A stretch of DNA of 36,871 nucleotides, from the IMG/VR virus record IMGVR_UViG_3300045988_105062. The stretch is one strand, 5' to 3'. The translations under genes and the position numbers were made by a program. Positions within the stretch are counted from its first letter, which is position 1, and the number at the start of each line of letters is the position of its first letter. Positions 1 to 36,871 of this stretch are shown here, in pieces. The notes beneath the pieces are model-generated. The model searched no databases, was not told the DNA's origin, and saw only the letters and a list, made by a program, of their open reading frames with translations. The stretch is from a virus.

Positions 1-72
1 GTTGTTAATCCAGCAAAGGTGTTATCACAAATGCCAGCAGATACAACAAGCTATGAGGAGTACATGCAGATG
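1..72. repeat. 72-bp terminal direct repeat, identical to 36800-36871 (circular contig overlap)
   Basis: GTTGTTAATCCAGCAAAGG...GTACATGCAGATG occurs at both window ends; an ORF is continuous across the junction. Confidence 0.95.
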
Positions 73-1371: not shown

Positions 1372-2229
1372 ATGAATAAAAATATAATTTCTTTTTTAAA
1401 TATGAAAGGTGGAGTATGTAAAACTACTTTATGTAAAGAAATTGCGTTACATTTATCTAATAATATGAATAAAAAGGTATTAGTTATAGATATAGATCCT
1501 CAGGCAAACTGTACACAATCTTTTTTTGAGCATTTCAAAGTGATACAAATAAAAGATGATGAAATAATTACAGACATTAATTCATTACCGACAATTCAAA
1601 ATTTGTATAGAACTTCTGGTTCAATGTTAGAAGGTGCAAATACAGAAAAAATTGTATATAAATTAACAGATAATTTGCATTTAATTCCGGGAGAATTAAA
1701 TGTTTACTTTATGGATAGAGAAATAGGATCTGGGGCAGCAGAGCATATATTGTGTAATTTTGTAGAAGATAGTGATTTTAGAAAAAAATATGATTATATA
1801 TTTATAGACTGTCCTCCAACATATTCATTTTATACAATAACAGCGTTACTGACGAGTGATTTTTATTTAGTACCTGTTGTTCCAGATGCATATTCTATGT
1901 TGGGAGTAAGTATGTTGGATAGTGTTGTTGATAGATTAAAGGGAACATATAGAAGAGATTTTGATAGTCATTCATTGGATTGTTTAGGAATAATATTTAC
2001 CAAAATAGATTCAAATCCGTCCAAAGGAATAAAAAGAAATATGAAAAATATTTCAAAAGCATTTAAGGATACAAAGATATTTAATACTGTATTTCCGAAT
2101 TCTCCCAAATTAATTACATCAGATATGTCAAAGTTTATTTCTGATAGACAAGATACAAATTTAATAACATCTTTAGAAGATATTTGCATAGAATTTGATA
2201 AGGAGGTTACTATTAGAAATGAAGAATAA
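1372..2229 (+). CDS. ParA/MinD-family P-loop ATPase (285 aa)
   Basis: Deviant Walker A NMKGGVCKTT, A' box VLVIDIDPQAN, Walker B YDYIFIDCPP. Confidence 0.85.
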   Translation: MNKNIISFLNMKGGVCKTTLCKEIALHLSNNMNKKVLVIDIDPQANCTQSFFEHFKVIQIKDDEIITDINSLPTIQNLYRTSGSMLEGANTEKIVYKLTDNLHLIPGELNVYFMDREIGSGAAEHILCNFVEDSDFRKKYDYIFIDCPPTYSFYTITALLTSDFYLVPVVPDAYSMLGVSMLDSVVDRLKGTYRRDFDSHSLDCLGIIFTKIDSNPSKGIKRNMKNISKAFKDTKIFNTVFPNSPKLITSDMSKFISDRQDTNLITSLEDICIEFDKEVTIRNEE

Positions 2230-2596
2230 GATATATAAAAAAATAATGATAACACAAGGAATAAAAGATATTGATGAATTCAAGATGGAAATGTATTCTA
2301 TTTTAACAAGTATTGTATATGATAGAAATATATATAAACATAATAAGGAATTAGAAGAATTATTTTTAAAATTAAATATTCCATGTAAGCCGTATTTGTT
2401 AAAAAGCAGAAATCAATCAATTATAAAATTTTTAAGTGTAATACATAAATCAACTTATGAAGAGTTAGTTGAACAATTACAGATATTAAAAAAAGTGATG
2501 ATAGAAAGTATGGAAGAAGATAATAAAGTAGAAACAAATGAAGAAAACAAAGAAAGTGATTATGACATATTGGTGAAGAAATATGGAAAAAAATAG
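2219..2596 (+). CDS. hypothetical protein, 125 aa, acidic C-terminus; translationally coupled to the ParA-like gene
   Basis: ATG overlaps the upstream stop by 11 nt; AAGGAGG upstream; no recognisable motif. Confidence 0.65.
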   Translation: MKNKIYKKIMITQGIKDIDEFKMEMYSILTSIVYDRNIYKHNKELEELFLKLNIPCKPYLLKSRNQSIIKFLSVIHKSTYEELVEQLQILKKVMIESMEEDNKVETNEENKESDYDILVKKYGKK

Positions 2597-3254
2597 TCAA
2601 TTAGGCGAATATGAAGAGTTTTTAAAAAAAGTATTTCCTGAATGTCAATATAATAAAGAATATGATTTGTTATATAAAAGAATATGTAGTTTTAATATTT
2701 TTATAGAAATATTAAAAAATTACATAAATGATGAAAAAGTAGAATTTTTTATTTCTAAAATAATATATGGATATAATATGTTATTAATGTATGTACCATT
2801 AAGTGATAGTATGGGAATAACAGCGTGTATGAGATATATTACTGAACAAACACTTAAGTGTTTTTATTCATATATTTTTAAAGATAAATCAATAAAGAAA
2901 ATTAATGAAACATCATACAGAAATATTAAAGAAGATATAAAAAGCGAATATACAGATAAAGATTATTTAAATAGGTTGTATTCTCAATATGCAAAATATT
3001 CTAATGAAGTTCATGATAAGTTGAAATTAGAAAATAAAGAGATAGAATATATATATGATATATTATCAAGAGAAAATACAATGATTGAATACATAAATAA
3101 AGATGTTTATACATTGATGAAAATATTATTTAAGTTTTTAATACATAATTATGAAATTAAATATAAGTCGTTTAATATATCTCAAAGGATAAATTATGAA
3201 AAAATATTTTCAAGTAAATTTCATAAGGAATTTGATGAGTTATTAGGAGGTTAA
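2583..3254 (+). CDS. hypothetical protein, 223 aa, helical and Lys/Tyr/Ile-rich
   Basis: ATG overlaps the upstream gene by 14 nt; no recognisable motif. Confidence 0.7.
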   Translation: MEKNSQLGEYEEFLKKVFPECQYNKEYDLLYKRICSFNIFIEILKNYINDEKVEFFISKIIYGYNMLLMYVPLSDSMGITACMRYITEQTLKCFYSYIFKDKSIKKINETSYRNIKEDIKSEYTDKDYLNRLYSQYAKYSNEVHDKLKLENKEIEYIYDILSRENTMIEYINKDVYTLMKILFKFLIHNYEIKYKSFNISQRINYEKIFSSKFHKEFDELLGG

Positions 3255-17371: not shown

Positions 17372-20300
17372 ATGTATAACAATGTAACGGAAGCTTTTAA
17401 AGAAACAATAAGAAGTCCATCGAGGACTTTTGAAGCCAGATTAAGAATTAATGGAAAATGGTATAATTCCCGATTTAAAAAATTGGGCTATGAGACGTCC
17501 AGCACAGCAGATGAAGCATTACAGCTAGGGTCGGCGGTATCTGCTAAGATAGAGATTACTCTTAAGAAGATAGATGAATTATTTGAAAACACAGAGATAC
17601 CAGTAGAGATAGGTTTAAAGCTGCCAAGTGGAAAGTATGAATATATTCCACTTGGCTTTTTTACAGCAGAGCACCCACAAAGTGATCAGGCAACAACGAC
17701 ATTTACAGCATATGACAGAATGATGAAGACTACAGGACTATATATATCCAATCTGATATATCCAGCAAGTGCTGCTTCGGTTTTAAGTGAGATAAGTACA
17801 AGCTGTGGTGTTCCGGCAGACGTAAGTGGTCTGGATTACATAATGATACAGACTAAACCAGTTGGATATACATACAGAGAGGTGATAGGCTATATAGCTT
17901 CATTAGCTGGTGGATTTGCATGCGTGGACAGAGCCGGAACTATTGTTATTAAGTGGTATAAAGAATGTGAGTATTCTATAGATAAAACAAGAATTATGTC
18001 ATTTGAGCATAATGAAAGCAACTTTCATCTGGACTATGTTAACTGTAATGTGGATAGCCAGACTGAATTAACGCAGGGCGGTGGACAACTGGGAATAACC
18101 TTTTCCAACCCATTTATGACGTCAGACAGATTAAGTTATATATATCAGAGCATTAAAGGATTTACTTATAGAGGAGCTTCGTTAAAAACACTTGGAGATA
18201 TACGCCTGGATCCGTGGGATATCATAACTGTCAATGATGGTACTGGTGAATATAAAATGCCGGTTATGAATTTGGTACAGGAATATGATGGTGGTATGGC
18301 TATGACTGTTACATCTTATGGGAAGACGGAAACTGAGACTGAAACAGATTTTAAAGGTCCGACAACACAGCAGAACGAAAGAATATATTCTGATTTGATA
18401 TTAGCAAAGGAATTAATAGCAAAGAAGGTTGATGCCGACTGGGTTAAGGCTAATACAGTTACGGCAGAAAAAATCACCGCTGTAAATGCAGAGATAATTG
18501 ATATAAAGACTAATTATCTAAAAGCCGAGGATGCAGATTTGAAGTATGCTAACATAAAGCTTAGTAATATCGAGGCCGGCTCTATAAAGACAGCAATGAT
18601 AGACAAAGGTGCAGTTGGTACAGCTCAGATTGCAGATGGAAGCATAACAGATGCAAAGATAGTAGATTTAACTGCTAATAAAATAACAAGCGGAACTATA
18701 GATGCCGCTAATATTGAAGTAATTAACCTTAAAGCGGCTAATATTACAGTTGGTACTATTAATGGCAAGCAGATAGCTTCTGGCGCAGTAGATATGTCTA
18801 AATTTGATACAGATGTAACGCAATGGATAAGTGCGACAGATAAGGATGTGGAAAATGCAGCACAAAAGGCAGATACAGCTAATACAAATGCGGCGGGTGC
18901 ATTAAGCACGGCGGAAGCGGCTAAACTTTTATCAGCGGCGGCTTCTAAGACCGCGGAAGGAGCACAGCTTACAGCAGATGGCAAGAATACTGTATTTTAT
19001 CAGACAACAGCACCCTTGGCAGATGGTAGAAAAACTAATGATATATGGTTTAATACAGCAGATTCAAATAAGATGTATTACTTTAATGGTACAGGCTGGG
19101 TATTACGTCAGTTCGGAACTACTGCCATTGCAAATGCCTCTATAACTAATGCCTTAATAGCAGATGCAACAATACAGAATGCCAAGATTGCCAATATGGA
19201 TGCAGGAAAGATTACAAGTGGTTATATATCTGCAGACAGGATAGCTTCAGGTTCGATTGTAATTGGAAAACTTGATGCTGGTACGCAGAATGATATAGCT
19301 GCCGCCAAGAAAAGATATCAGATAACTGTAGATTTAAGAGACGCAAAATATAATACGGATACATATTATCCAGTATTAATAAATTCAGCTATACCATATA
19401 ACGGCTTACATAACTATGAATGTAATGTTCAGCTTAATAGCGGTTCTAAACCTGTATGGTCTAAGCACAATCAGGGATTTACCTGCAATCTTATACTTAA
19501 GGTTTTAGCAAGTGGTTGGGGAACAACGGATGCAAGTGGTTACTTAGAAGAAAACAATTATAGATACTGTAATAAAATGCCTGCGTTTGTAGGGCAGGTA
19601 CTACAACATAGCCAGATATATTTTATGTTGCGTGGTGGGGCACGATATTACCTTTATACACCTAATAAAAGTGACGTAATAATATATACGGCTAAAACTA
19701 ATATAGCAAGAAATACTTCATATACAGTGTATCTTGAACCTACCCAATCGCCAAAGAATGATTATGCGGAGGCTAAAGGATCTACAATTGCAAGCTGGTG
19801 TGCTGCAAATAATAAGACCCTTATTAATGGTGGAAAGATATATACAGGCAGTGTTACAGCAACACAGATAGCCGCAAATGCAATAACAACAGAAAAGATA
19901 GCGGCAAGTGCAGTTAATGCAGATAAAATAGCAGCTAGTGCTATAACTTCGGCAAAAATAGCAGCAAATGCAGTAACCTCGGATAAGATTGTTGCCAATG
20001 CAGTTACAGCCGCAAAGATAGCTTCAAAGACAATAACAGCCAATCAGATAGCTTCCAAGACAATAACAGCGGCAGAGTTAAGTGTATCTACATTGTCTGC
20101 AATATCCGCAAACCTGGGAACAGTTACAGCCGGAGTGCTTAAAAGCTCTAATTATGTTGCAAACAGTACAGGAATGATGCTTAACCTTGCAACAGGAACG
20201 TGGGACAGCAAGTATTTTAAAATATCCAGCACGGGAGATATAACAAGTACCAGTGGTATTATTGGTGGCTGGTATATAAACTCAACAGGGCTCAGTAGTT

Positions 20301-22975: not shown

Positions 22976-23064
22976 CAACAAAAATAAAAGAGGATAAGAA
23001 GATGAAAAGAGAAGAAATGAAAAACATAAATAAATAGAGGTTAAATAAAGAAGGGAGAAGAATT

Positions 23065-23385
23065 ATGAAATACGAAATTGAAGAAATTGGAAGAGATAAG
23101 GGGTATAAAATCGGGGAGCAGGAACTCTATAGAATAATAGATACAGTATTCCCAACTCGCGACTTCGGCGAGGGCTGGCACGAGGAAACAAGTGGAAATA
23201 TCTGGGAGAAAGGAGATAAAAAAAGAAATTACCTTAAGTTAAAGAGGTATAGAAACTATAAAATTAGAGAGGAAGAAAATCTCGGCTACTACGACTATAT
23301 AAGAGAAGCTTACATAGTAACAAGCTACAGAATAGTAGTAACTGATGTGATAGAAAAATATAACGAAATGGAAAAGGAAAATTAA
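23065..23385 (+). CDS. hypothetical small protein (106 aa), first gene of the post-lysis moron
   Basis: GAAGGGAGAAG RBS; no recognisable motif. Confidence 0.65.
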   Translation: MKYEIEEIGRDKGYKIGEQELYRIIDTVFPTRDFGEGWHEETSGNIWEKGDKKRNYLKLKRYRNYKIREEENLGYYDYIREAYIVTSYRIVVTDVIEKYNEMEKEN

Positions 23386-23386
23386 A

Positions 23387-23959
23387 ATGAAAACAAATTT
23401 TAAAATGACAGAGGAAATAAGACTAGTTAAACAGTTGGCAAAATTAAATATATTAGGCGTAAGATACGCAGAAAGACACAAAGGCCTTATATACTCGACT
23501 TGGCGAGATGTTGAGCGCTTCATTACAGGCGGCAAACCAGCCTGTACATATGAGTACGCTGTAAATAAACTGTGCGAAAATGCTATGAAGCTGTGCGGAA
23601 ACAGCGATTACCTCGTAAGCGAAACACTTAAGCTTAAAGAGGAGATAGAAAACAGTGATATTAAAGAATTGAGGTTCGGGCTTGAACCTCGAAAGAAATT
23701 TACAGAGCTAGAGAATGAGTTAAATACAGAGCTGACAAAGTATCATCTATTGTATAACTCGGACACAGTAGAAATAAAGAAAGCGGCTGAGATACTTGAC
23801 GGTAAAGTGACAGAGAGTGCAATCAAGCAGGCTTGCCAGCAGGAGCGATTAATGAACACAAAAAAAGTAGGGAATGTGTGGTTGGTGAGCTTATCTGAGT
23901 GCCGCAATTATTGGGAAATACCAGACGATGACGAAAAGGCACTAAAATGGGAGTATTAA
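23387..23959 (+). CDS. hypothetical protein (190 aa) with a C-terminal excisionase/MerR-like HTH
   Basis: IKKAAEILDGKVTESAIKQACQQERLMNTKKVGNVWLVSLSECRNYW; start lies 1 nt after the upstream stop. Confidence 0.6.
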   Translation: MKTNFKMTEEIRLVKQLAKLNILGVRYAERHKGLIYSTWRDVERFITGGKPACTYEYAVNKLCENAMKLCGNSDYLVSETLKLKEEIENSDIKELRFGLEPRKKFTELENELNTELTKYHLLYNSDTVEIKKAAEILDGKVTESAIKQACQQERLMNTKKVGNVWLVSLSECRNYWEIPDDDEKALKWEY

Positions 23960-23981
23960 GATAAAAACACTAAGAAACAAA

Positions 23982-24013
23982 AAAGAGAGACTTAAGCTAA
24001 GTCTCTCTTTTAT
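23982..24013 (+). terminator. intrinsic terminator
   Basis: AAAGAGAGACTTA-AGC-TAAGTCTCTCTTT (13-bp perfect stem) running into TTTTAT. Confidence 0.85.
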
Positions 24014-24151
24014 CACGCCCTGGCGTTGCGGTTTAGAAATAAACTTAAAACATAATTAATGCAAAATCGTATATTTCAATACATATATATGTTACTGTTT
24101 ATGCAATGAAATTAGTATAAAACAAAACGCTATTACTGTCAATCTAAGTTA

Positions 24152-24340
24152 CTACCAACAGAGTGGGACTAATTCCTCAGTGCCGATATCTGTAAGCAGC
24201 CCGGCAACTTCCCTGTATGGCATAGAATATCTTTGCGAGATGTAACGCATAGAAGCACCAAGCTCGCCGTCCGGTCCACCATACTTCAATAAGGTATACT
24301 GCTGAAAAGCCAGCATATATGCGGGTTTGACAACTTGGTA
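24152..24340 (-). pseudogene. cotJC: fragment of a cotJC / manganese-catalase family gene (N-terminal region only)
   Basis: Minus-strand frame gives ...VVKPAYMLAFQQYTLLKYGGPDGELGASMRYISQRYSMPYREVAGLLTDIGTEEL, then VPLCW-stop. This matches the GGxDGEL...Y..Q...LLTDIGTEE core and breaks just before the conserved His. Confidence 0.7.
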
Positions 24341-24368
24341 AAAATATAGTAAGTAAAATGTTTGCTAT

Positions 24369-25835
24369 TTATTTTTGCAGGAAGAAGTACACTTCCAATT
24401 TATCATTTTCTTTATCATATACCATATGGTCAACAACACTTCTTATAGCATTAGCCCTTGTAAGAGTATTATTAGAGGTATCTTTTATAATGTCATATAC
24501 AGTTGATATACTCTTAAGCATGGCTGCATTAGAATCATCAGATGCTAAGCTGAAGGCTTCCAACTGTTTTTTAAGTGCTTTACGTTCGTCCTTAATCAGT
24601 TGTTTATTTTCTTTATATTCTTCTATTGTATCAATTCCATCCCGGTATGCTTGCTTTATTCTTGCTTCTTTATCATCAAGTTTAGATAATTTACTAAGAA
24701 GTATATCTCTGTCATCTGTATTAGCTTCGTTTGAAGCTTTTTTTAGTTCGTAATGCAATTCGGCAGTTCCATCAAAAACTCGTTCAAATGCGTTATATAC
24801 AGCCTGTTCAAGGGCAGCAGTTTTTATAAAATGGCTATGCAGACATTTGCCTTTGTTGTAGTTGCCGCATTGGTAACGTGTAGCATTAAGCCCAGCCATA
24901 AGAGAAGCTCCGCAGTCAGAACATTTCACAATTCCACCAAGCCAATGCTTCATATGTCCAGCGGCTCGTGCTTTGTATGGTTTGCTCCTTAAAGCCATAA
25001 GATGTTGTACCAAATCCCAAGTTTCTTTATTAATTATTGCTGGGTGTTTACCCATAACAATAATCCATTCACTAATGTCCTTTATTGTATGATTGTCGTG
25101 ATTTTGTCTATTCCAGCGGACGGCTCCATAATAAAATGGATTACTTAATATATATTCAACAGTACGTCCCTCAAATGCAGCCCCGCGCTTAGTTTTATAT
25201 CCAAGGGCATTAAGTTCCCTGGCAATTTCCAAGTAGCTGTGGCCGGCAATGTAGTCATTGTATATTTTTCTTACAATAACAGCTTCTTCTTCGTATATGT
25301 AAGGAATGCCAGTCTCTTTATTCATTCGGTATCCAAGAGGCAGAGAAGACTGGTAACCACCTCGTAAGGCTTTCTCAGTCATACCTCTTAGAACTTCGCC
25401 AGACAGACGAATAGAATAGTATTCATCCATCCACTCTATTATACGTTCTATTAAGGTACCAAAAGGACCATCAATAAGTGGCTCGGATACACTCACAACA
25501 TCAACACGGTTCTTTTTAAGTAAAGATTTGTAGACAATCGATTCTTCTTGATTACGCGCAAATCGGCTGAATTTCCATACAAGAATAACATCGAATGGGT
25601 GTTCTTTGCTTTTTGCCATTCCTATCATTTTCATAAATTCTGGTCGTTTGTCTGCTTTCTTGCCGGAAATACCATTATCAATGTAAATGTTTTCTGCCAG
25701 AAGTGACATATTATTCTTTTTTGCAAAGTCAATCAAAAGCCGCTTCTGTGCATCTGGTGAAAGTTCTTCCTGTTTATCTGTGGACACACGTATGTAGGCA
25801 CAAGCAGATTTCATATTAAGTATATCCCTAGCCAT
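24369..25835 (-). CDS. int: large serine recombinase (integrase)
   Basis: CAYIRVSTDKQ catalytic Ser motif, resolvase N-domain, recombinase domain, Cys-rich zinc ribbon CSDCG...CGNYNKGKC, C-terminal coiled coil; start MARD after AAAGGA. Confidence 0.92.
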   Translation of the reverse strand: MARDILNMKSACAYIRVSTDKQEELSPDAQKRLLIDFAKKNNMSLLAENIYIDNGISGKKADKRPEFMKMIGMAKSKEHPFDVILVWKFSRFARNQEESIVYKSLLKKNRVDVVSVSEPLIDGPFGTLIERIIEWMDEYYSIRLSGEVLRGMTEKALRGGYQSSLPLGYRMNKETGIPYIYEEEAVIVRKIYNDYIAGHSYLEIARELNALGYKTKRGAAFEGRTVEYILSNPFYYGAVRWNRQNHDNHTIKDISEWIIVMGKHPAIINKETWDLVQHLMALRSKPYKARAAGHMKHWLGGIVKCSDCGASLMAGLNATRYQCGNYNKGKCLHSHFIKTAALEQAVYNAFERVFDGTAELHYELKKASNEANTDDRDILLSKLSKLDDKEARIKQAYRDGIDTIEEYKENKQLIKDERKALKKQLEAFSLASDDSNAAMLKSISTVYDIIKDTSNNTLTRANAIRSVVDHMVYDKENDKLEVYFFLQK

Positions 25836-25865
25836 ATTAATCATCCTTTCTGTAAAATATATGCA

Positions 25866-25883
25866 AGTTGCACCGGTGCAACT
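25866..25883. promoter_or_regulatory. 18-bp perfect palindrome AGTTGCACCGGTGCAACT in the integrase leader
   Basis: Exact dyad about 30 nt upstream of the int start. Confidence 0.6.
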
Positions 25884-25926
25884 CAGTAAAAATGGGTATA
25901 AAAAATAACACCTACTTGCATAAGCG

Positions 25927-25980
25927 GTGCTATGAATGATATAATATGGCTTGTTCAGGGCGGTATTATATCATAAGCAC
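25927..25980. promoter_or_regulatory. inverted repeat whose arms each contain an extended -10 (TGATATAAT): face-to-face promoters
   Basis: GTGCTATGAATGATATAATA-17 nt-TATTATATCATAAGCAC; inner 10 bp perfect, outer GTGCT/AGCAC. Confidence 0.5.
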
Positions 25981-26050
25981 AGCTTAAGCTTATGTAAGTA
26001 TCGTGGTAAAAGCTCTTGTGTTGGTAGCACAGGGGCTTTTATTTATTTTT
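25952..26050 (+). ncRNA. putative ~95-nt plus-strand small RNA, antisense to the integrase promoter/leader region
   Basis: Plus-strand TGATATAAT (25937-25945) followed about 65 nt later by an 11-bp stem hairpin (26010-26038) plus TTTTATTTATTTTT; no ORF. Confidence 0.35.
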
Positions 26051-26081
26051 AAATCATAACGGCATTATCACCGAGATGGTA

Positions 26082-26114
26082 TAAAAAGACTCTGGGCCCG
26101 AAGGACACCAGAGT
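26082..26114 (-). terminator. intrinsic terminator downstream of the 533-aa gene
   Basis: Minus strand ACTCTGG-12 nt loop-CCAGAGT then CTTTTTAT; preceded by a second 10-bp hairpin at 26115-26142. Confidence 0.6.
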
Positions 26115-26205
26115 ACATTCAAGAGTAGTGTATCTTGAATGTATATTAGTGTCAATAGTCATTCCCACATCTCCAACACATAAAATGTTGGTTTAAAGCT
26201 GATAA

Positions 26206-27807
26206 TTATTCGTCTTCATCATCATCAAGAGAGTATGAGTTAGTATAGTTAGAATCAGAAGAAAGAGATTGACGATATTCGCCAGCTACCATTGTTTTGT
26301 TAAATTCTGCCGTTGGTTCTATTTCATCAACTATCTTTTCAAGCTCATCTATAGATATCTTGAAAAATTCCTTACGCATATTAACTTTATTTACACGTCT
26401 ATCATTAAGTATTTCGTGCATCTTATTTTCAAGAGCTACAGCATCTTTAGAGAATATGAAGCTATGTACATCAAATTTAAAAGGAACGCTGGCGTTTCCG
26501 AGCTCATTAATTCTGTCTTGAGGTTCAAGCCTACGTGTCATACCTACTTTAAATACATCTTCACCAAAAGCTCCTAAGTTACTTATTATATAAACAGTAC
26601 CGGCTTTACCATTTTGTAAGTTAGTTATTTCATCCTTTTTAATAATTACTTCACCTAATTGAGATTGAAGTTCAAGGATTCTTGCCTTGAGTTTATCAAT
26701 TTCTGATTCATCAGTAGTATTTAACATAGTATCTTGCAACTTACTAATTTCAGTATTGAACTTTTCTTCTTCCTGTTGAATATGTTTCTTTTCACGTTCA
26801 AGAGCTTTACGTTCTTCAGCTTCCTGTCGCATTTGTTCTTTAAGAGCCATCTGTTCTTGCTTAGCTTGCTCACGTTTAACATAGTAATTATATTCAATTT
26901 TAACAGCATTAATAAAGAGATATTCTAATTCGCCTATGAACTTTGTAAGAGTACCAGCAATAGTCTGATTGCCTTCGCCAGCAATCTTAAGGTATTTAGC
27001 AGAAATATCTTTTACATGTTCGATTGCAGTATCTAGCTTTTCATATTTTAGTGCATATAATACATTCTGTAATTCAGCTCTTAATGCTATTACCATTAGG
27101 TTGTAGATAGCTTTATTAGCTTTGGTTGTATATCTGGCAGAATATTGCTTTAAAAGATTGTCTATAAGCTTTTCATTATCTTTATAAGCTTTTCGCAGAC
27201 TCTTTATGTCCATACAATGTAATTTAAGAATTACTGAAGGAGCAATTTCTTCGGCATCTTTTAAATCACTTGTGCTTAATATGCAACTATTATAAGGGAT
27301 TTCTAAATTTATGAAGTTATCAAATGCATAAGCAAAACTTTTATACAATTCTTTGGAACGTGATATTTTACGCTGCTGGGTTGCAAGAGATTTTTTTAGT
27401 TTATCATCCTGTTGTTGCAATTCATTAATTTCAGTTCTCAATTTATCAATTAATACATTATTACTCTGTATTTCTTCATTGAGAGAATCAAGGTTAGCCT
27501 TTGCTTCGCTTTCAGCAGAAGCAATCTTTGTGGCTGATTCCTGTTCTATTTGTTCAATCTTTTTCTTTGTTTCTATATATTCAGTAACACCTAGCTCATC
27601 ACATGTTTGTTTCATTTCAGAATATTCCTGCGATAGTTGATTGTTCTGATTGAATGTTTGTGTAAATAGTTCTTTTTGTTTCTTATCATTTACAGCTTTT
27701 ATGATAAGAAGAATAATGCCGATTATAGGCGGAATAATAAGAAACCAGCATGCACATAAAAGTGCAATAAACCAAGTGCTTAAGTACCATTTGCTTTTAG
27801 TGTTCAT
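26206..27807 (-). CDS. membrane-anchored coiled-coil protein with a DUF4041-like region and a C-terminal T5orf172/MUG113 (GIY-YIG superfamily) domain, 533 aa
   Basis: N-terminal TM WYLSTWFIALLCACWFLIIPPIIGIILLII. About 350 aa of Glu/Lys/Gln heptad-like sequence. C-terminus GTVYIISNLGAFGEDVFKVGMTRRLEPQDRINELG...ALENKMHEILNDRRVN...KEFFKISIDEL. AGGAGG lies 9 nt upstream of the ATG at 27807. Confidence 0.8.
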   Translation of the reverse strand: MNTKSKWYLSTWFIALLCACWFLIIPPIIGIILLIIKAVNDKKQKELFTQTFNQNNQLSQEYSEMKQTCDELGVTEYIETKKKIEQIEQESATKIASAESEAKANLDSLNEEIQSNNVLIDKLRTEINELQQQDDKLKKSLATQQRKISRSKELYKSFAYAFDNFINLEIPYNSCILSTSDLKDAEEIAPSVILKLHCMDIKSLRKAYKDNEKLIDNLLKQYSARYTTKANKAIYNLMVIALRAELQNVLYALKYEKLDTAIEHVKDISAKYLKIAGEGNQTIAGTLTKFIGELEYLFINAVKIEYNYYVKREQAKQEQMALKEQMRQEAEERKALEREKKHIQQEEEKFNTEISKLQDTMLNTTDESEIDKLKARILELQSQLGEVIIKKDEITNLQNGKAGTVYIISNLGAFGEDVFKVGMTRRLEPQDRINELGNASVPFKFDVHSFIFSKDAVALENKMHEILNDRRVNKVNMRKEFFKISIDELEKIVDEIEPTAEFNKTMVAGEYRQSLSSDSNYTNSYSLDDDEDE

Positions 27808-27823
27808 AATTGTTAGCCTCCTA

Positions 27824-28648
27824 TTATAATAATTTCCAACTGTATCCACAATTTAAGCATTTAACTACACCTTGTTTGCTTGAAAGTCCGCCTATAATTG
27901 CTCCAGTACTTCCAAATGCAGCACCTCCAAGAAGAGCTCTTCCCAAACTTAATTTTTTAGTGGAATAGTTTATGCTGGTACTTCCACATTTAGGACAACA
28001 AGCTATTCCATTAGCTTTGTTTTCTTTTACTTTTTCTTTAATCTGTCCTTTTTTTGTAATTGATGGATTCTTTGTATTCCAAATAGGAGTGCCATTTTTG
28101 GGATGTGGCACATTTCCTATAATTGTATTTATTTTTTCAGTATCATTTTTATCTACAATATAAAATCCGGTATCCTTTTTTCCACAATAAGGGCATTTTT
28201 CAGCTTTTACTAGTAACTTATCACCGCAATTATTACAGATTTTTATTTTATTAGATAAATCATTACCATTGGAATCTGTAATTATATTTTTTTCTAAGAA
28301 TTGATGTACATCTTTTATATCAGAATTAACACCGGTATATAATAGTCCATCATATATTTTTTTGAGTTTTTTATCTGATGCAGACAAAACCCAGAAATTA
28401 TCATCAATAAATTCTATTACAATGTAAGGATTTGCTAAAAATACATTAGTAATTTCCTCGCTTTTATATAAAGATTTTGTATTACCTGTAACGTCGAGGA
28501 GTAATCCTGCGTTATATAGTCCAATACTACAATAGGTTTTTTCAGCAGATGATGTTCCATTTATATATTTTGCAGTAGTAAGAAATGTAAAACTTGAAAA
28601 CCCTCCTTCTTTTTTTATATTTTTGAATTGTTCCTTAGATATATCCAT
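27824..28648 (-). CDS. double zinc-ribbon protein with a C-terminal glycine-zipper segment, 274 aa
   Basis: CNNCGDKLLVKAEKCPYCG, and CCPKCG...GGAAFGSTGAIIGG...CLNCG; start lies 1 nt after the upstream stop. Confidence 0.7.
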   Translation of the reverse strand: MDISKEQFKNIKKEGGFSSFTFLTTAKYINGTSSAEKTYCSIGLYNAGLLLDVTGNTKSLYKSEEITNVFLANPYIVIEFIDDNFWVLSASDKKLKKIYDGLLYTGVNSDIKDVHQFLEKNIITDSNGNDLSNKIKICNNCGDKLLVKAEKCPYCGKKDTGFYIVDKNDTEKINTIIGNVPHPKNGTPIWNTKNPSITKKGQIKEKVKENKANGIACCPKCGSTSINYSTKKLSLGRALLGGAAFGSTGAIIGGLSSKQGVVKCLNCGYSWKLL

Positions 28649-31135: not shown

Positions 31136-32041
31136 ATGGATGAGATGGTTGTGTCTGTAGAGCAGACAAATGGAATTTTAAACATTAGTAACTTTGATGA
31201 TATTAAGGAAAATGTACAGGCATCTATGAATCTGTATAAAACAATGGTATTTACAGAAGATACTCTTATTGAGGCAAAGAGCACAGTTGCAACATTAAGA
31301 AAGCTTAGTAAGTGTCTTGATGATAAAAGAAAAGAAGTTAAGAAAAAATATATGCAGCCATATGACGCTTTTGAGGACAAAATAAAAGAACTTCAGCAGA
31401 TCATAGCTGAGCCAATAGAACTTATTGCAAAGCAGACAAAAGAGTACGAGGATAAGCGTATTGAACAGAAAAAAGAAGAAATACATCAGATATATGATAG
31501 CTGTATAGAAGGAATGCAGGAATATCTTCCGTTAAGTAAGATTTATGATAAAACGTGGGAAAATAAGGGAACATCTGCAAAAAAAATTAAAGAGGCTATA
31601 GAAACATATGTTAATAATGCCCAAATGTCGATAGAGACAATTAAGAATATGCACAGTGATGCAGAACAGAAAGCACTGGATACATTTAAGAAGACTCTTG
31701 ATTTGGCAATGTCTATTAATGTAATAACGAAGTATGAAGCTGAAAAAGCAGAGATATTAAGAAAAGAGCAGGAACGTAAGGCAGAAGAAGATAAAAGAAT
31801 ACAGGAAAAGGTTAGCAAGGATGATATAAAGCAGAATGTTAAAAGTGCAGATGAAGCCTTTGTTGAAGCTTGCAATAGTGTAGATGATGATATGGTAGCA
31901 TCCTTTGTTACAGGATCTAATGAACAGCAGAAGGAATTTATATTGAAGATATATTGTTCTGAAACTGAAAAAGATATGATTTGTGAATATATTGATAATA
32001 TTGGTGTGATGTATCAGGAGGTATGTAATGGCAGAGAGTAA
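31136..32041 (+). CDS. DUF1351-family protein (accessory to phage recombinases)
   Basis: N-terminal pattern ...LIEAKSTVATLRKLSKCLDDKRKEVKKKYMQPYDAFEDKIKEL; sits immediately upstream of Erf. Confidence 0.65.
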   Translation: MDEMVVSVEQTNGILNISNFDDIKENVQASMNLYKTMVFTEDTLIEAKSTVATLRKLSKCLDDKRKEVKKKYMQPYDAFEDKIKELQQIIAEPIELIAKQTKEYEDKRIEQKKEEIHQIYDSCIEGMQEYLPLSKIYDKTWENKGTSAKKIKEAIETYVNNAQMSIETIKNMHSDAEQKALDTFKKTLDLAMSINVITKYEAEKAEILRKEQERKAEEDKRIQEKVSKDDIKQNVKSADEAFVEACNSVDDDMVASFVTGSNEQQKEFILKIYCSETEKDMICEYIDNIGVMYQEVCNGRE

Positions 32042-32684
32042 AAGCATTTACGAAAAGCTTGCAGAGATGAGAGTGGAATTGCAGGCAAAGAAATTAATTA
32101 AGACTGGAAAAAATACATACAGCAAATATGAGTATTATGAACTTTCAGATTTCCTTCCATCCTGCAATAGTATTGCGGCACAGCATAAGACATTGTTTAA
32201 ATTTGCAATTAATGAGAACACAGCAAGTCTTACACTTATTAATCTTGAGAATTTAGAGGATGTAATTGAATTCAGCATACCTACCGCTAATGTAAGCATT
32301 CAGGGAGCTACTGCAATGCAGAATATTGGTGCGGTAACAACATATGCCAGAAGATACCTCTATATGATAGCGATGGAGATAAGCGAGGATGATAACCTTG
32401 ATACAGCAGATACAGCGGAAAAGGTTACAAAGGAACAGCAACAGCGGAAAGAAGAAGCTGAACGTAAAGCTCAGGAAGCAAAAGAAGCTGAAATAAAAGC
32501 TATGAAGATAACCAAGCCTAAGATAATGACAATTGAACAGGAAATTAAAAGAACAGGGGTATCCAGCAAAGTGATATGTGAGCGTTTCAGAGTTAATAGT
32601 CTTGAAGAAATTACAGAAGGAATGTTCCCTAAAGTAATGCAGGCTTTAAGGGCAACAGATTCAAAGCCGGTTATTGAAGAATGA
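32028..32684 (+). CDS. erf: ERF-family single-strand annealing protein
   Basis: IYEKLAEMRVEL...KNTYSKYEYYELSDFLP...GAVTTYARRYLYM. Confidence 0.75.
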   Translation: MAESKSIYEKLAEMRVELQAKKLIKTGKNTYSKYEYYELSDFLPSCNSIAAQHKTLFKFAINENTASLTLINLENLEDVIEFSIPTANVSIQGATAMQNIGAVTTYARRYLYMIAMEISEDDNLDTADTAEKVTKEQQQRKEEAERKAQEAKEAEIKAMKITKPKIMTIEQEIKRTGVSSKVICERFRVNSLEEITEGMFPKVMQALRATDSKPVIEE

Positions 32685-33226
32685 AATGCACAGGAAGATA
32701 TAAAGATGTATCAATAGATTTTCAGACAATGAAACAGATACTTATGTTAGAAGTAAATGATAATGTGGCTGGACAGTTTATTGAGCTTAAAGAAAAGGAA
32801 AAGCTGGATATAGAAATTAAGCCCCACAGGGAAAGGCGAAGTCTTGATGCCAATGCCTATTTTCACGTTCTTGTAGGCAAGATAGCTGATAAGCAGAGGT
32901 TATCTAAAGCCAAGGTTAAGAATATGCTTCTGGGACAATATGGACAGCCTATGGAAGTTGATACCGGTGTTGTGGCAGTAATAAAAACCAATATACCAAT
33001 AAATACAGCATATGAAATGGAAGAACCACATTTAAGATACATCAAATATGAAGTTGAAAATGGATTTGAAGTATATTTCTACAAAATCATAAGAGGCAGT
33101 CATACATACAATTCTTATGAAATGTCTGTATTAATTGATGGTACCGTGGCAGAAGCAAAAGATCTGGGAATAGACACAATATCTCCTGTAGAGCTGGCAC
33201 AGCTAAAAGAAAGGTGGAATATATGA
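32681..33226 (+). CDS. NinB/Orf-like recombination mediator (putative)
   Basis: RRSLDANAYFHVLVGKIA resembles the lambda Orf RSLDQNRKLWACLGDV segment; recombination-module context. Confidence 0.45.
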   Translation: MKCTGRYKDVSIDFQTMKQILMLEVNDNVAGQFIELKEKEKLDIEIKPHRERRSLDANAYFHVLVGKIADKQRLSKAKVKNMLLGQYGQPMEVDTGVVAVIKTNIPINTAYEMEEPHLRYIKYEVENGFEVYFYKIIRGSHTYNSYEMSVLIDGTVAEAKDLGIDTISPVELAQLKERWNI

Positions 33227-33513
33227 GTAAGAAACTTAAAAGTGTATTTACTGATAATATGGATGAATGTATATTCACAGGTTCAACTACAGTAGAACGG
33301 CATCATATATTCGGCGGATCTAACAGGAAGAAAAGTGAGAAGTATGGATTTGTAGTCCCACTTCGTCCAGATTTACACCCTAATGGAGTATATGCCGGAC
33401 AATCTGCCAATGTCATAGACTTAAGGCTTAAGAAAATGGCACAGAAGTATTATGAAGAGAATTATGGTACAAGAGAATATTTTATACAGGAGTTTGGAAG
33501 AAATTATCTGTGA
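33223..33513 (+). CDS. conserved phage protein with His-rich (HNH-like) motif
   Basis: ERHHIFGGSNRKKSEKYGFVVPLRPDLH; AAAGGTGG SD. Confidence 0.45.
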   Translation: MSKKLKSVFTDNMDECIFTGSTTVERHHIFGGSNRKKSEKYGFVVPLRPDLHPNGVYAGQSANVIDLRLKKMAQKYYEENYGTREYFIQEFGRNYL

Positions 33514-33597
33514 CATATAATATCACACAATCTACGTTGTCACAGAAATACATATAAGCCCTGTGGTACATACTTCCACAGGGCGGAAAGGAGCTGA

Positions 33598-33984
33598 ATG
33601 CTCTATACATTTACAATCAAGGGTACGCTTCCAGGATTAAACGAATACCTGAAAGCAGAAAGAAGCTTTCATAACCGGCATAGTACGGGCAACGATATGA
33701 AGCAGCAGTATCAGATGATCATATCTAACGCTATAAGGCTTAATCTTAAGCGTACCCATATAAATAATCCAGTCCGGATTAAATACACATTCTATGAGCC
33801 TAACAGAAAGCGTGACCTTGATAATATAGCAGGAGTTGCACATAAGTTCATACAGGATGCACTTGTTAAATGCAAGGTTATAGATAATGATGGCTGGAAT
33901 AACATAGTAGGCTTTGAAGATCATTTCTTCATAGATAAACATAACCCACGAATAGAAGTGGTTCTAGAAGAGGTGAAGCCGTGA
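33598..33984 (+). CDS. rusA: RusA-family Holliday junction resolvase
   Basis: RKRDLDNIAGVAHKFIQDALVKCKVIDNDGWNNI. Confidence 0.75.
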   Translation: MLYTFTIKGTLPGLNEYLKAERSFHNRHSTGNDMKQQYQMIISNAIRLNLKRTHINNPVRIKYTFYEPNRKRDLDNIAGVAHKFIQDALVKCKVIDNDGWNNIVGFEDHFFIDKHNPRIEVVLEEVKP

Positions 33985-34484
33985 TAACAGAACAGCGTAT
34001 AGACTATATAAAACAACTGAACGGGTTTGAAAGGTGGCTCGAAAGTCATTACTTGCCGAGTGCTGCGCAATTATTGTACTACAAATTATTAAGTATCAAT
34101 AATATGGCAGGGTGGTGCGAGTGGATACAAGTAGATAACCAGCGAGTAATGTCTCGTTGTCAGATGTCAAGAGAGGCTACGTTAGTCGAAAACAGAAATA
34201 AATTAATAGATGCTGGACTTATAGAATTCCAGAGAGGGAAGAAAGGAAGTCCTAATAAATATAAAATTTGTACTTTCAAATCCGTAGGGAAAAGCGTAGG
34301 AGAAACCGAAGTAGAAAGCGTAGTACAATCCGTAGGGAAAAGCGTAGGAGAAACCGTAGCCATATATAAACATAAACAAAAACTAAATAATATAGCGCCT
34401 GCGCGCGCGAACAACAAATTTAATAATTTTAACCAAAGACCAAAACATTCAGACGAGTTCTACAACTCTGTTCTGGACAACTAA
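33981..34484 (+). CDS. replication organiser / DnaD-like winged-helix protein
   Basis: N-terminal FERWLESHYLPSAAQLLYYKLLSINNMAGW...ATLVENRNKLIDAGLIEF; carries an internal iteron array. Confidence 0.55.
   Translation: MITEQRIDYIKQLNGFERWLESHYLPSAAQLLYYKLLSINNMAGWCEWIQVDNQRVMSRCQMSREATLVENRNKLIDAGLIEFQRGKKGSPNKYKICTFKSVGKSVGETEVESVVQSVGKSVGETVAIYKHKQKLNNIAPARANNKFNNFNQRPKHSDEFYNSVLDN
34282..34365. repeat. seven 12-bp periodic iterons (SCGTAG core), including two exact 30-bp copies 48 bp apart; candidate origin
   Basis: CCGTAGGGAAAA GCGTAGGAGAAA CCGAAGTAGAAA GCGTAGTACAAT CCGTAGGGAAAA GCGTAGGAGAAA CCGTAGCCATAT. Confidence 0.8.
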
Positions 34485-36671: not shown

Positions 36672-36871
36672 TGGATGATAGCAGAATACAGGCAATGAGA
36701 GATAACCGTGTATACATTAGTGGACCAATAACCGGCATTGATGATTATATGGAACGCTTCAGCAATGCCGAGAAAGAATTAAAAGAGCAAGGCCTTAGTG
36801 TTGTTAATCCAGCAAAGGTGTTATCACAAATGCCAGCAGATACAACAAGCTATGAGGAGTACATGCAGATG
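36671..36871 (+). CDS. 5' part of the wrap-around DUF4406-like protein (continues at base 73 after removing the 72-bp overlap)
   Basis: TAATG overlap with the upstream stop; VYISGPITG motif; frame stays open to the window end. Confidence 0.7.
   Translation, partial: MDDSRIQAMRDNRVYISGPITGIDDYMERFSNAEKELKEQGLSVVNPAKVLSQMPADTTSYEEYMQM
36800..36871. repeat. second copy of the 72-bp terminal repeat
   Basis: Identical to 1-72. Confidence 0.95.

Follow-up and report, generated by a model that had tools for sequence, protein, structure and literature searches.

A segment of host cotJC probably trapped in the attachment site of a serine-integrase phage lineage of gut Lachnospira

Introduction

Serine integrases act only on attP and attB and need no homology between the two, and it is for these properties that they are prized for genome engineering. 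The sites of Listeria A118/LI, Bxb1 and phiC31 have inverted P and P' arms of about 24 bp around a central dinucleotide, share a short core with attB, and direct insertion into conserved coding sequence. Phages with tyrosine integrases carry the end of a tRNA or protein gene, which gives a long attP-attB identity, direct repeats that flank the prophage and a hybrid copy of the target; the part carried is a functional replacement end. Specialised-transducing phages of the lambda gal/bio type arise by aberrant excision, carry host DNA contiguous with one side of the att site, and are defective by-products. In the Firmicutes, skin (in sigK) and SPbeta (in spsM) are elements with a large serine recombinase that interrupt the coding sequence of a spore-coat or sporulation gene, of which an uninterrupted allele exists. 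Phage- or transposon-related insertions have been described as frequent in the gene cotJC (bioRxiv 10.1101/2021.11.22.469490), and in Laceyella sacchari this gene is interrupted by a skin-like element (bioRxiv 10.1101/2022.02.25.481979).

Here we describe a phage, contained in a stretch of 36,871 nucleotides (the window), whose host is a gut Lachnospira and whose target is cotJC. It resembles skin and SPbeta in interrupting a sporulation gene for which uninterrupted alleles are found, but its host is a gut bacterium, and the phage carries 110 bp of its target, with long direct repeats flanking the prophage. Relatives of its integrase use sites of the A118/LI, Bxb1 and phiC31 kind, whereas the site in the window has a P arm only, with the host B' arm and further host DNA in the P' position. 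As in lambda gal/bio phages, host DNA from one side of the core has been gained and the phage DNA of the other side (P') lost; however, only about 108 bp were gained and about 24 bp lost, and the derivative has succeeded in nature as a lineage that spans several phage types and host species. The long identity between phage and host, the flanking repeats and the hybrid target recall the tyrosine-integrase phages, but the integrase here is a serine integrase, which needs no homology, and what is copied is an internal 5' segment that has no translation signals. A literature search found no description of a serine-integrase phage with a long, host-matched piece of its target in the attachment site. 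cotJC itself is already on record as a target of intervening elements in spore formers.

Results

The two ends of the window overlap exactly (Table 1); it is a phage contig, circular or circularly permuted, of 36,799 bp. Genes for tail, holin and lysin are accompanied by a lysogeny module and a replication/recombination module. The integrase has the complete domain set of a large serine recombinase, with PF00239, PF07508 and PF13408 each above cut-off, and its relatives (47-97% identity) are found in genomes of Lachnospira and other Lachnospiraceae and in IMG/VR contigs. The homologous-recombination module is pertinent here solely as a possible route of exchange across a 110-nt identity with the host; its matches in PHROGs are to an Erf-like protein (phrog_155, 2.9e-24), NinB/Orf (phrog_72, 7.3e-18) and a RusA-like protein (phrog_1682, 1.4e-37).

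Several other features of the phage were observed. Adjoining int, positions 26206-27849 (minus strand) encode a large protein that is coiled-coil in structure and ends in a T5orf172/MUG113 (GIY-YIG-like) domain. In relatives this place is taken by Abi_2, SIR2_2 or Bro-N genes, which makes it a variable accessory slot, possibly for defence. Overlapping repeats with a 12-nt period (AATCCGTAGGGAAAAGCGTAGGAGAAACCG...) lie at 34279-34359 within the gene of a DnaD-like replication initiator and could be origin iterons. Five 30-nt repeats, 73-77% identical to the reference copy, are present at 19856-20065 within the gene of a 1174-aa tail protein, and the G+C content of positions 2001-3000 is only 21% over 1 kb, against 30-42% in the rest of the phage. 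A strong sigma-70-like promoter match (TTGACA-17-TATACT, 11/12; 24114-24142, minus strand) lies just past the phage/host junction described below and is directed away from the cotJC fragment; it is followed at 23981-24011 by a terminator with a 14-bp stem.

Table 1. Positions in the window of the attachment region and of the associated phage features.
Feature	Position	Strand	Remarks
54-aa ORF: phage leader, cotJC fragment and five phage codons (VPLCW*)	24152..24316	-	encodes MLAFQQYTLLKYGGPDGELGASMRYISQRYSMPYREVAGLLTDIGTEELVPLCW*
Host-identical cotJC segment, 110 nt	24174..24283	-	codons 29-65 and the first two bases of codon 66: YGGPDGEL...DIGTEE
Phage sequence past the host-identical segment (ATTAGTCCCACTCTGTTGGTAGTAAC...)	24145..24173	-	junction with host DNA in lysogens
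Putative central crossover dinucleotide GG (YGG codons of cotJC)	24276..24277	-	palindrome centre in L001, L023 and L077
P arm of the canonical attP of the integrase family (CAGTATACCTTATTGAAGTATGGT)	24278..24301	-	identical to the P arm at attR of L001
Large serine recombinase (integrase), 491 aa	24369..25844	-	Pfam: Resolvase 9.6e-28, Recombinase 6.1e-30, Zn_ribbon_recom 2.7e-7
Last phage gene before the non-integrase junction, 190 aa	23387..23959	+	no family match; bait for attL junctions
Homologous-recombination module	32028..33984	+	Erf-like annealing protein 32028-32684; NinB/Orf mediator 32681-33226; RusA-like resolvase 33598-33984
Exact 72-nt overlap	1..72 and 36800-36871		contig ends

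A 54-aa ORF begins 52 bases downstream of the integrase gene. It matches the Mn_catalase family (Pfam PF05067; E 2.6e-9, 36.9 bits against a cut-off of 27), with residues 11-49 aligned to positions 28-67 of the 284 in the profile, a span too short for a complete four-helix di-manganese domain with all its metal ligands. The uninterrupted target is a CotJC-type manganese catalase of 204-206 aa, homologous to solved Mn catalases, and is encoded by the final gene of a tightly packed cotJA-cotJB-cotJC operon; such alleles were found at L161, L162 and L179-L181 and at 15 native loci from a metagenome scan. The native protein starts MWNYEKRLEYPIKIKQTNPTLAAMIISQ-YGGPDGEL and the phage ORF MLAFQQYTLLK-YGGPDGEL, and from there the two are identical through DIGTEEL. 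The phage ORF stops ahead of the His in the TEExxH motif. The initial annotation, made from the sequence of the window, had recognised both the resemblance to CotJC and its abrupt end, and we agree on each count: the DNA is identical to host cotJC at 109-110 of 110 positions, and the limit of identity, at 24174/24173, falls between the EE and the His. A weak dyad that it reported near 24170 does not stand, as a direct count gave 7 of 12 positions complementary, which is not above chance.

The joint between int, the fragment and phage DNA is widespread. The exact 54-aa ORF, a product found solely on that joint, was present in 29 blocks of the contig collection, and 14 of these blocks include contigs of 20-50 kb. 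Among the ten places listed for this ORF, six contigs of the 20-50 kb class are 27-39 kb long and come from different samples, and across the ten the genes beside int vary (Bro-N, T5orf172, Abi_2, SIR2), as do the lysins. Matches to the pattern of the window-type phage arm were found in just two IMG/VR contigs. When positions 23000-26200 were compared with GenBank phages by BLAST, the sole match was 113 nt at 73.5% (window 24171-24283) to MT839831.1. This 'Bacteriophage sp.' contig, 4 kb long and unannotated, derives from human faeces and may hold another cotJC fragment or be host DNA.

Both junctions of integrated copies with cotJC were recovered, together with the uninterrupted alleles, which bears out the earlier proposal that the phage splits this gene. 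On the non-integrase side, the junction of phage DNA with a truncated 71-aa cotJC', next to host cotJB, falls at 24173/24174, close to the boundary first suggested; it was seen in eight L. rogosae-type contigs, and its equivalent in eight contigs of a second host species. The 190-aa bait protein, exact copies of which occur in 202 blocks of the contig collection, was followed on the opposite strand by the truncated 71-aa cotJC' and cotJB in eight of the ten places listed. In all 16 of these attL contigs (host-fragment-phage) the upstream site of the integrase is unoccupied, and an intact attB remains at the left junction. On the integrase side, the isolate [Lactobacillus] rogosae CLA-AA-H255 (L002) is 100% identical to the window over 327 nt, from 24500 down to 24174, past which host DNA continues in frame to give a 189-aa hybrid cotJC, followed by host genes. 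The arrangement is the same in L176, a contig with exactly the integrase of the window. Just past 24174 the phage reads ATTAG and L. rogosae GCTGG. The structure of the fragment-bearing prophage was assembled from separate contigs, no one contig with both ends being recovered. As assembled, the prophage appears to lie between two 110-bp direct repeats of cotJC, and to split the gene at about codon 66 on one side while leaving an N-terminally truncated hybrid on the other. Precise excision would rebuild cotJC, as uninterrupted alleles exist.

Window-type joints were also found within large contigs, of 171 kb (L171), 230 kb (L173) and 316 kb (L229), and these indicate tandem prophages. Such tandems fit the structure just described, since a fragment-bearing prophage leaves the attB of the integrase intact. 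We had considered a crossover at the right edge of the fragment, with attR regenerating attB, as an explanation for the tandems; it was dropped, as the canonical sites of relatives lie at the left edge. Two neighbouring sites, together with an attB that stays intact, account for the tandem cases.

The fragment is matched to its host. Positions 24174-24283 are identical at 110/110 positions to seven attL contigs (L166-L170, L172 and L175) and to L002 and L176, and at 109/110 to the attL locus L174 and the native gene L161, but only 79% identical to cotJC of the second host species, another Lachnospira (L162). In this second species, the fragment at attR (L177) is 110/110 identical to its own host, though the phage flank is 42/45 identical to that of the window. 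The eight attL junctions of that species carry a host-type segment with 0-2 mismatches, and a polymorphism of the host occurs at similar frequency in the attL junctions (2/8) and the native genes (5/15). Repeated exchange would explain why the fragment agrees base for base with the host species in which the phage is found.

The sequence that follows the fragment in the window (24145-24173) also follows the host fragment in the attL loci L166-L175 and is partly conserved across four fragment-carrying phage lineages. It showed no significant similarity to the P' arm or to downstream cotJC. Compared with the P' arm and with downstream cotJC as possible decayed sources, these approximately 28 nt did not beat shuffled controls in either case (p 0.07-0.98).

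The ordinary attachment site of this integrase family could be reconstructed from relatives. The metagenome scan of the second species gave six junctions of another kind, in which host cotJC extends as far as TATGGTGGA and then gives way to CCATACTTCAATAAGATATAC, the reverse complement of a conserved motif immediately upstream of the fragment in the window. Junctions of this canonical kind are present in L. rogosae-type hosts too, and a 35-kb IMG/VR contig (076957) has a canonical attL (L216) at one end and an integrase 87% identical to that of the window at the other. Where one locus holds both junctions, P agrees with the reverse complement of P' at 23/24 positions (L001, in which attL and attR are 8.7 kb apart), 20/24 (L023) and 17/24 (L077). 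The only sequence common to attL and attR in these three pairs is TAYGGNGGNCC. The arm sequences vary among lineages and co-vary within each, and all flank a central GG, which we infer from the symmetry to be the crossover dinucleotide. The P-arm motif upstream of the fragment is conserved in all relatives, and the P arm of the window is complementary at 22-23 of 24 positions to the P' arms at the canonical attL sites L214, L216, L184 and L193.

An attP of about 50 bp, with inverted P/P' arms around a central dinucleotide, is thus present at L001, L023 and L077, whereas the window site is symmetric at only 9/24 positions. The initial annotation had placed attP, and with it the integrase crossover, near 24170; this is most likely not the case, as the palindrome of relatives centres on the GG at 24276-24277, about 103 bp away. 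A scan for symmetric centres over the attP and attB sequences gave no clear peak. The AG centre at 24170/24169 averaged 8.75/24 and ranked eighth in the attP set, with about 6/24 expected at random, and the scan missed the true site because the window has no P' arm.

Two further observations concern the relatives. In L023, attL- and attR-type junctions at about 7890 (minus) and 11498 (plus) are inverted and lie about 3.6 kb apart around the integrase gene, with the cotJC halves facing opposite ways, which could reflect inversion or misassembly. In L001 (11480-12560), as well as L110 and L227-L233, int is separated from the P arm by an extra 254-aa gene, which is on the opposite strand and has no family match; in this sub-lineage neither the P arm nor the core has changed.

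In the window, the P arm and the GG are intact, and the P' position holds 108 bp of host cotJC. Host identity begins exactly at the integrase core, TATGGTGGACC, and the P' arm is absent, so the site reads P-GG-B', an attR-type arrangement. In the L110/second-species (species-3) lineage, colinearity of the phage DNA with canonical relatives starts immediately past the P' arm; just the 24-nt arm is replaced, by host DNA and about 28 nt. As in aberrant excision, the captured host DNA starts at the att core and the phage DNA of the other side is missing.

The hybrid cotJC on the integrase side arises at attR across the whole family, including canonical phages that have no fragment. It lacks the first 28 native residues and is uncoupled from cotJA and cotJB, and its phage-encoded leader, YTLLKYGG, is the P arm translated in frame. 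No Shine-Dalgarno sequence was found ahead of the hybrid in 25 phage-borne (integrase-side) lineages, whereas native genes have GGAGG. An in-frame start is absent, or a stop lies just upstream, in six lineages (L007, L014, L015, L016, L030 and L054), and a sigma-70 promoter scan found no promoter-like site between int and the fragment ORF. The hybrid gene does not offer the start codon, ribosome-binding site and full-length product of a functional replacement. The earlier suggestion that the gene might be restored at one junction therefore holds in part: an in-frame 189-aa hybrid is formed, but restoration is doubtful with the N-terminal residues and the Shine-Dalgarno sequence missing. Functional restoration seems unlikely, and the hybrid is probably a by-product, because it is without its 28 N-terminal residues and a ribosome-binding site.

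Other elements also use cotJC. In L009, L013, L064 and L077 an insert of about 7-9 kb separates the fragment that follows int from the remainder of cotJC. The insert was annotated in L009 (11560-20690), the other three being known from the same cotJC split only; it is an island of about 9 kb at the DIGTEE codons, adjoining the prophage and 10-15 nt from the right-hand boundary in the window. The island has its own palindromic site and encodes a large serine recombinase distinct from that of the window (533 aa; the two are 29% identical). Lachnospiraceae cotJC is therefore a hot spot for at least two unrelated serine recombinases. The island cargo includes two two-component systems and an AAA_14/DUF4143 protein, and its ends form an inverted repeat, GGAACATTT...AAATGTTCC. 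The cotJC products P0098 and P0101 are native up to ...HFQRFGEA and then have unrelated tails, suggesting a third insertion hot spot near the 3' end. At L233 (5480-7317), int and a truncated 86-aa Mn-catalase ORF are followed on the opposite strand by a 568-aa large serine recombinase, a second one at this locus that represents a further element in or beside cotJC.

Discussion

The initial annotation called the cotJC fragment unexplained, and it did need an explanation. We propose that it is probably host DNA trapped in the phage attachment site, with aberrant excision as its origin. A canonical ancestor with a palindromic attP (P-GG-P') would have recombined with cotJC at the GG of the YGG codons. 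Aberrant excision would then have linked the attL side of this prophage with cotJC at a position about 108 bp past attR, and the P' arm would thereby have been exchanged for the 108 bp of cotJC downstream of the GG. In some hosts a second GG followed by AC (TTA-GG-AC) lies at this point, where the phage variant L204 reads GG-ACCAC and other lineages have GA, GC or GT, so a secondary-site reaction by the integrase at the second GG is possible. Our structural conclusions on the site and on the prophage are drawn from sequence comparison.

Present-day integration and excision would take place within or at the edge of the 110-bp identity. One possible route is homologous exchange by host RecA or by the Erf/Orf/RusA proteins of the phage; an alternative or additional route is action of the integrase at the retained GG. 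Any crossover inside the 110 bp would give the same order: cotJB, cotJC codons 1-66, phage, int, P arm and cotJC from codon 29. That the fragment is matched exactly to its host in two species suggests that the segment undergoes homologous exchange, at least sometimes. Such exchange is also indicated by the identity with L. rogosae, which ends at the first mismatch between phage and host. The presence of Erf, Orf and RusA is weak evidence for the homologous route, such modules being common in temperate phages.

Could the integrase instead do all the work? It would then integrate and excise at the GG at 24276/24277 by a reaction between the attR-type phage site and host attB; as the right arms are identical, the substrate and product sites would be of the same kinds, the reaction could run in reverse with no need of a directionality factor, and attB would persist beside the prophage. 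An intact attB does persist at the left junction, tandem insertions do occur beside such prophages, and conservation of the integrase ORF and the P arm extends to fragment-bearing lineages with integrases of only 60-85% identity, which argues that the integrase still acts here. Action at the window site goes against what the canonical rules predict, however, as the published rules allow serine integrases no synapsis between attR and attB (PMC3783163). Moreover, a fixed crossover never swaps the fragment between phage and host, and alone it therefore leaves the exact match in two species unexplained. We consider this reading rather doubtful.

Two other explanations seem to us weaker still. In one, the free phage has an ordinary attP, and the joint exists only between tandem prophages in cotJC that assembly has collapsed into a 'circular' contig. 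Tandems do occur, to judge from the three large contigs with the joint, but an artefact of this kind is improbable: the 16 attL contigs with a free upstream integrase site require the left end of the phage to be joined past the fragment, many independent contigs of 27-39 kb with differing accessory genes carry the joint, and no canonical P' arm was found for the window lineage. These same phage-sized contigs and attL junctions argue for the derived phage being a genuine and widespread lineage. Even less probable is the other, in which the integrase crosses over at an attP near 24170 and the N-terminal copy of cotJC is selected to rebuild a working gene at the integrase-side junction. The exact position of the non-integrase junction, the in-frame hybrid and the insertion of an unrelated island 10-15 nt away would all suit it. 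Against it, the palindromic attP of the family lies at the opposite edge of the fragment, there is no significant dyad at 24170, and the L. rogosae exchange ends at the limit of homology and not at a shared core. Nor does the hybrid look selected, with its first 28 residues gone, no Shine-Dalgarno or promoter-like site ahead of it, starts missing or stops just upstream in several lineages, and the same product arising in canonical relatives without a fragment.

With host DNA trapped by aberrant excision as the preferred origin, we tentatively suggest that the lineage may cycle efficiently despite the loss of P' to 108 bp of cotJC, either by homology-driven Campbell recombination, in which the segment is re-matched to each host, or by a reaction of the integrase between the attR-type site and attB. 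A lesson for prophage prediction is that host-like sequence may end (here at 24174) somewhere other than at the crossover of the recombinase. The phage with the P-GG-B' site occurs both as a prophage and as phage-sized circles in many human gut samples, and it represents a common gut phage lineage with a natural site that breaks the serine-integrase layout, in which a single P arm is combined with a single B' arm and 108 bp taken from the host. Should the integrase prove active on such a site, serine integrases would follow looser pairing rules than has been thought; otherwise the phage would have gone over to homology-driven integration and yet have kept its integrase intact.
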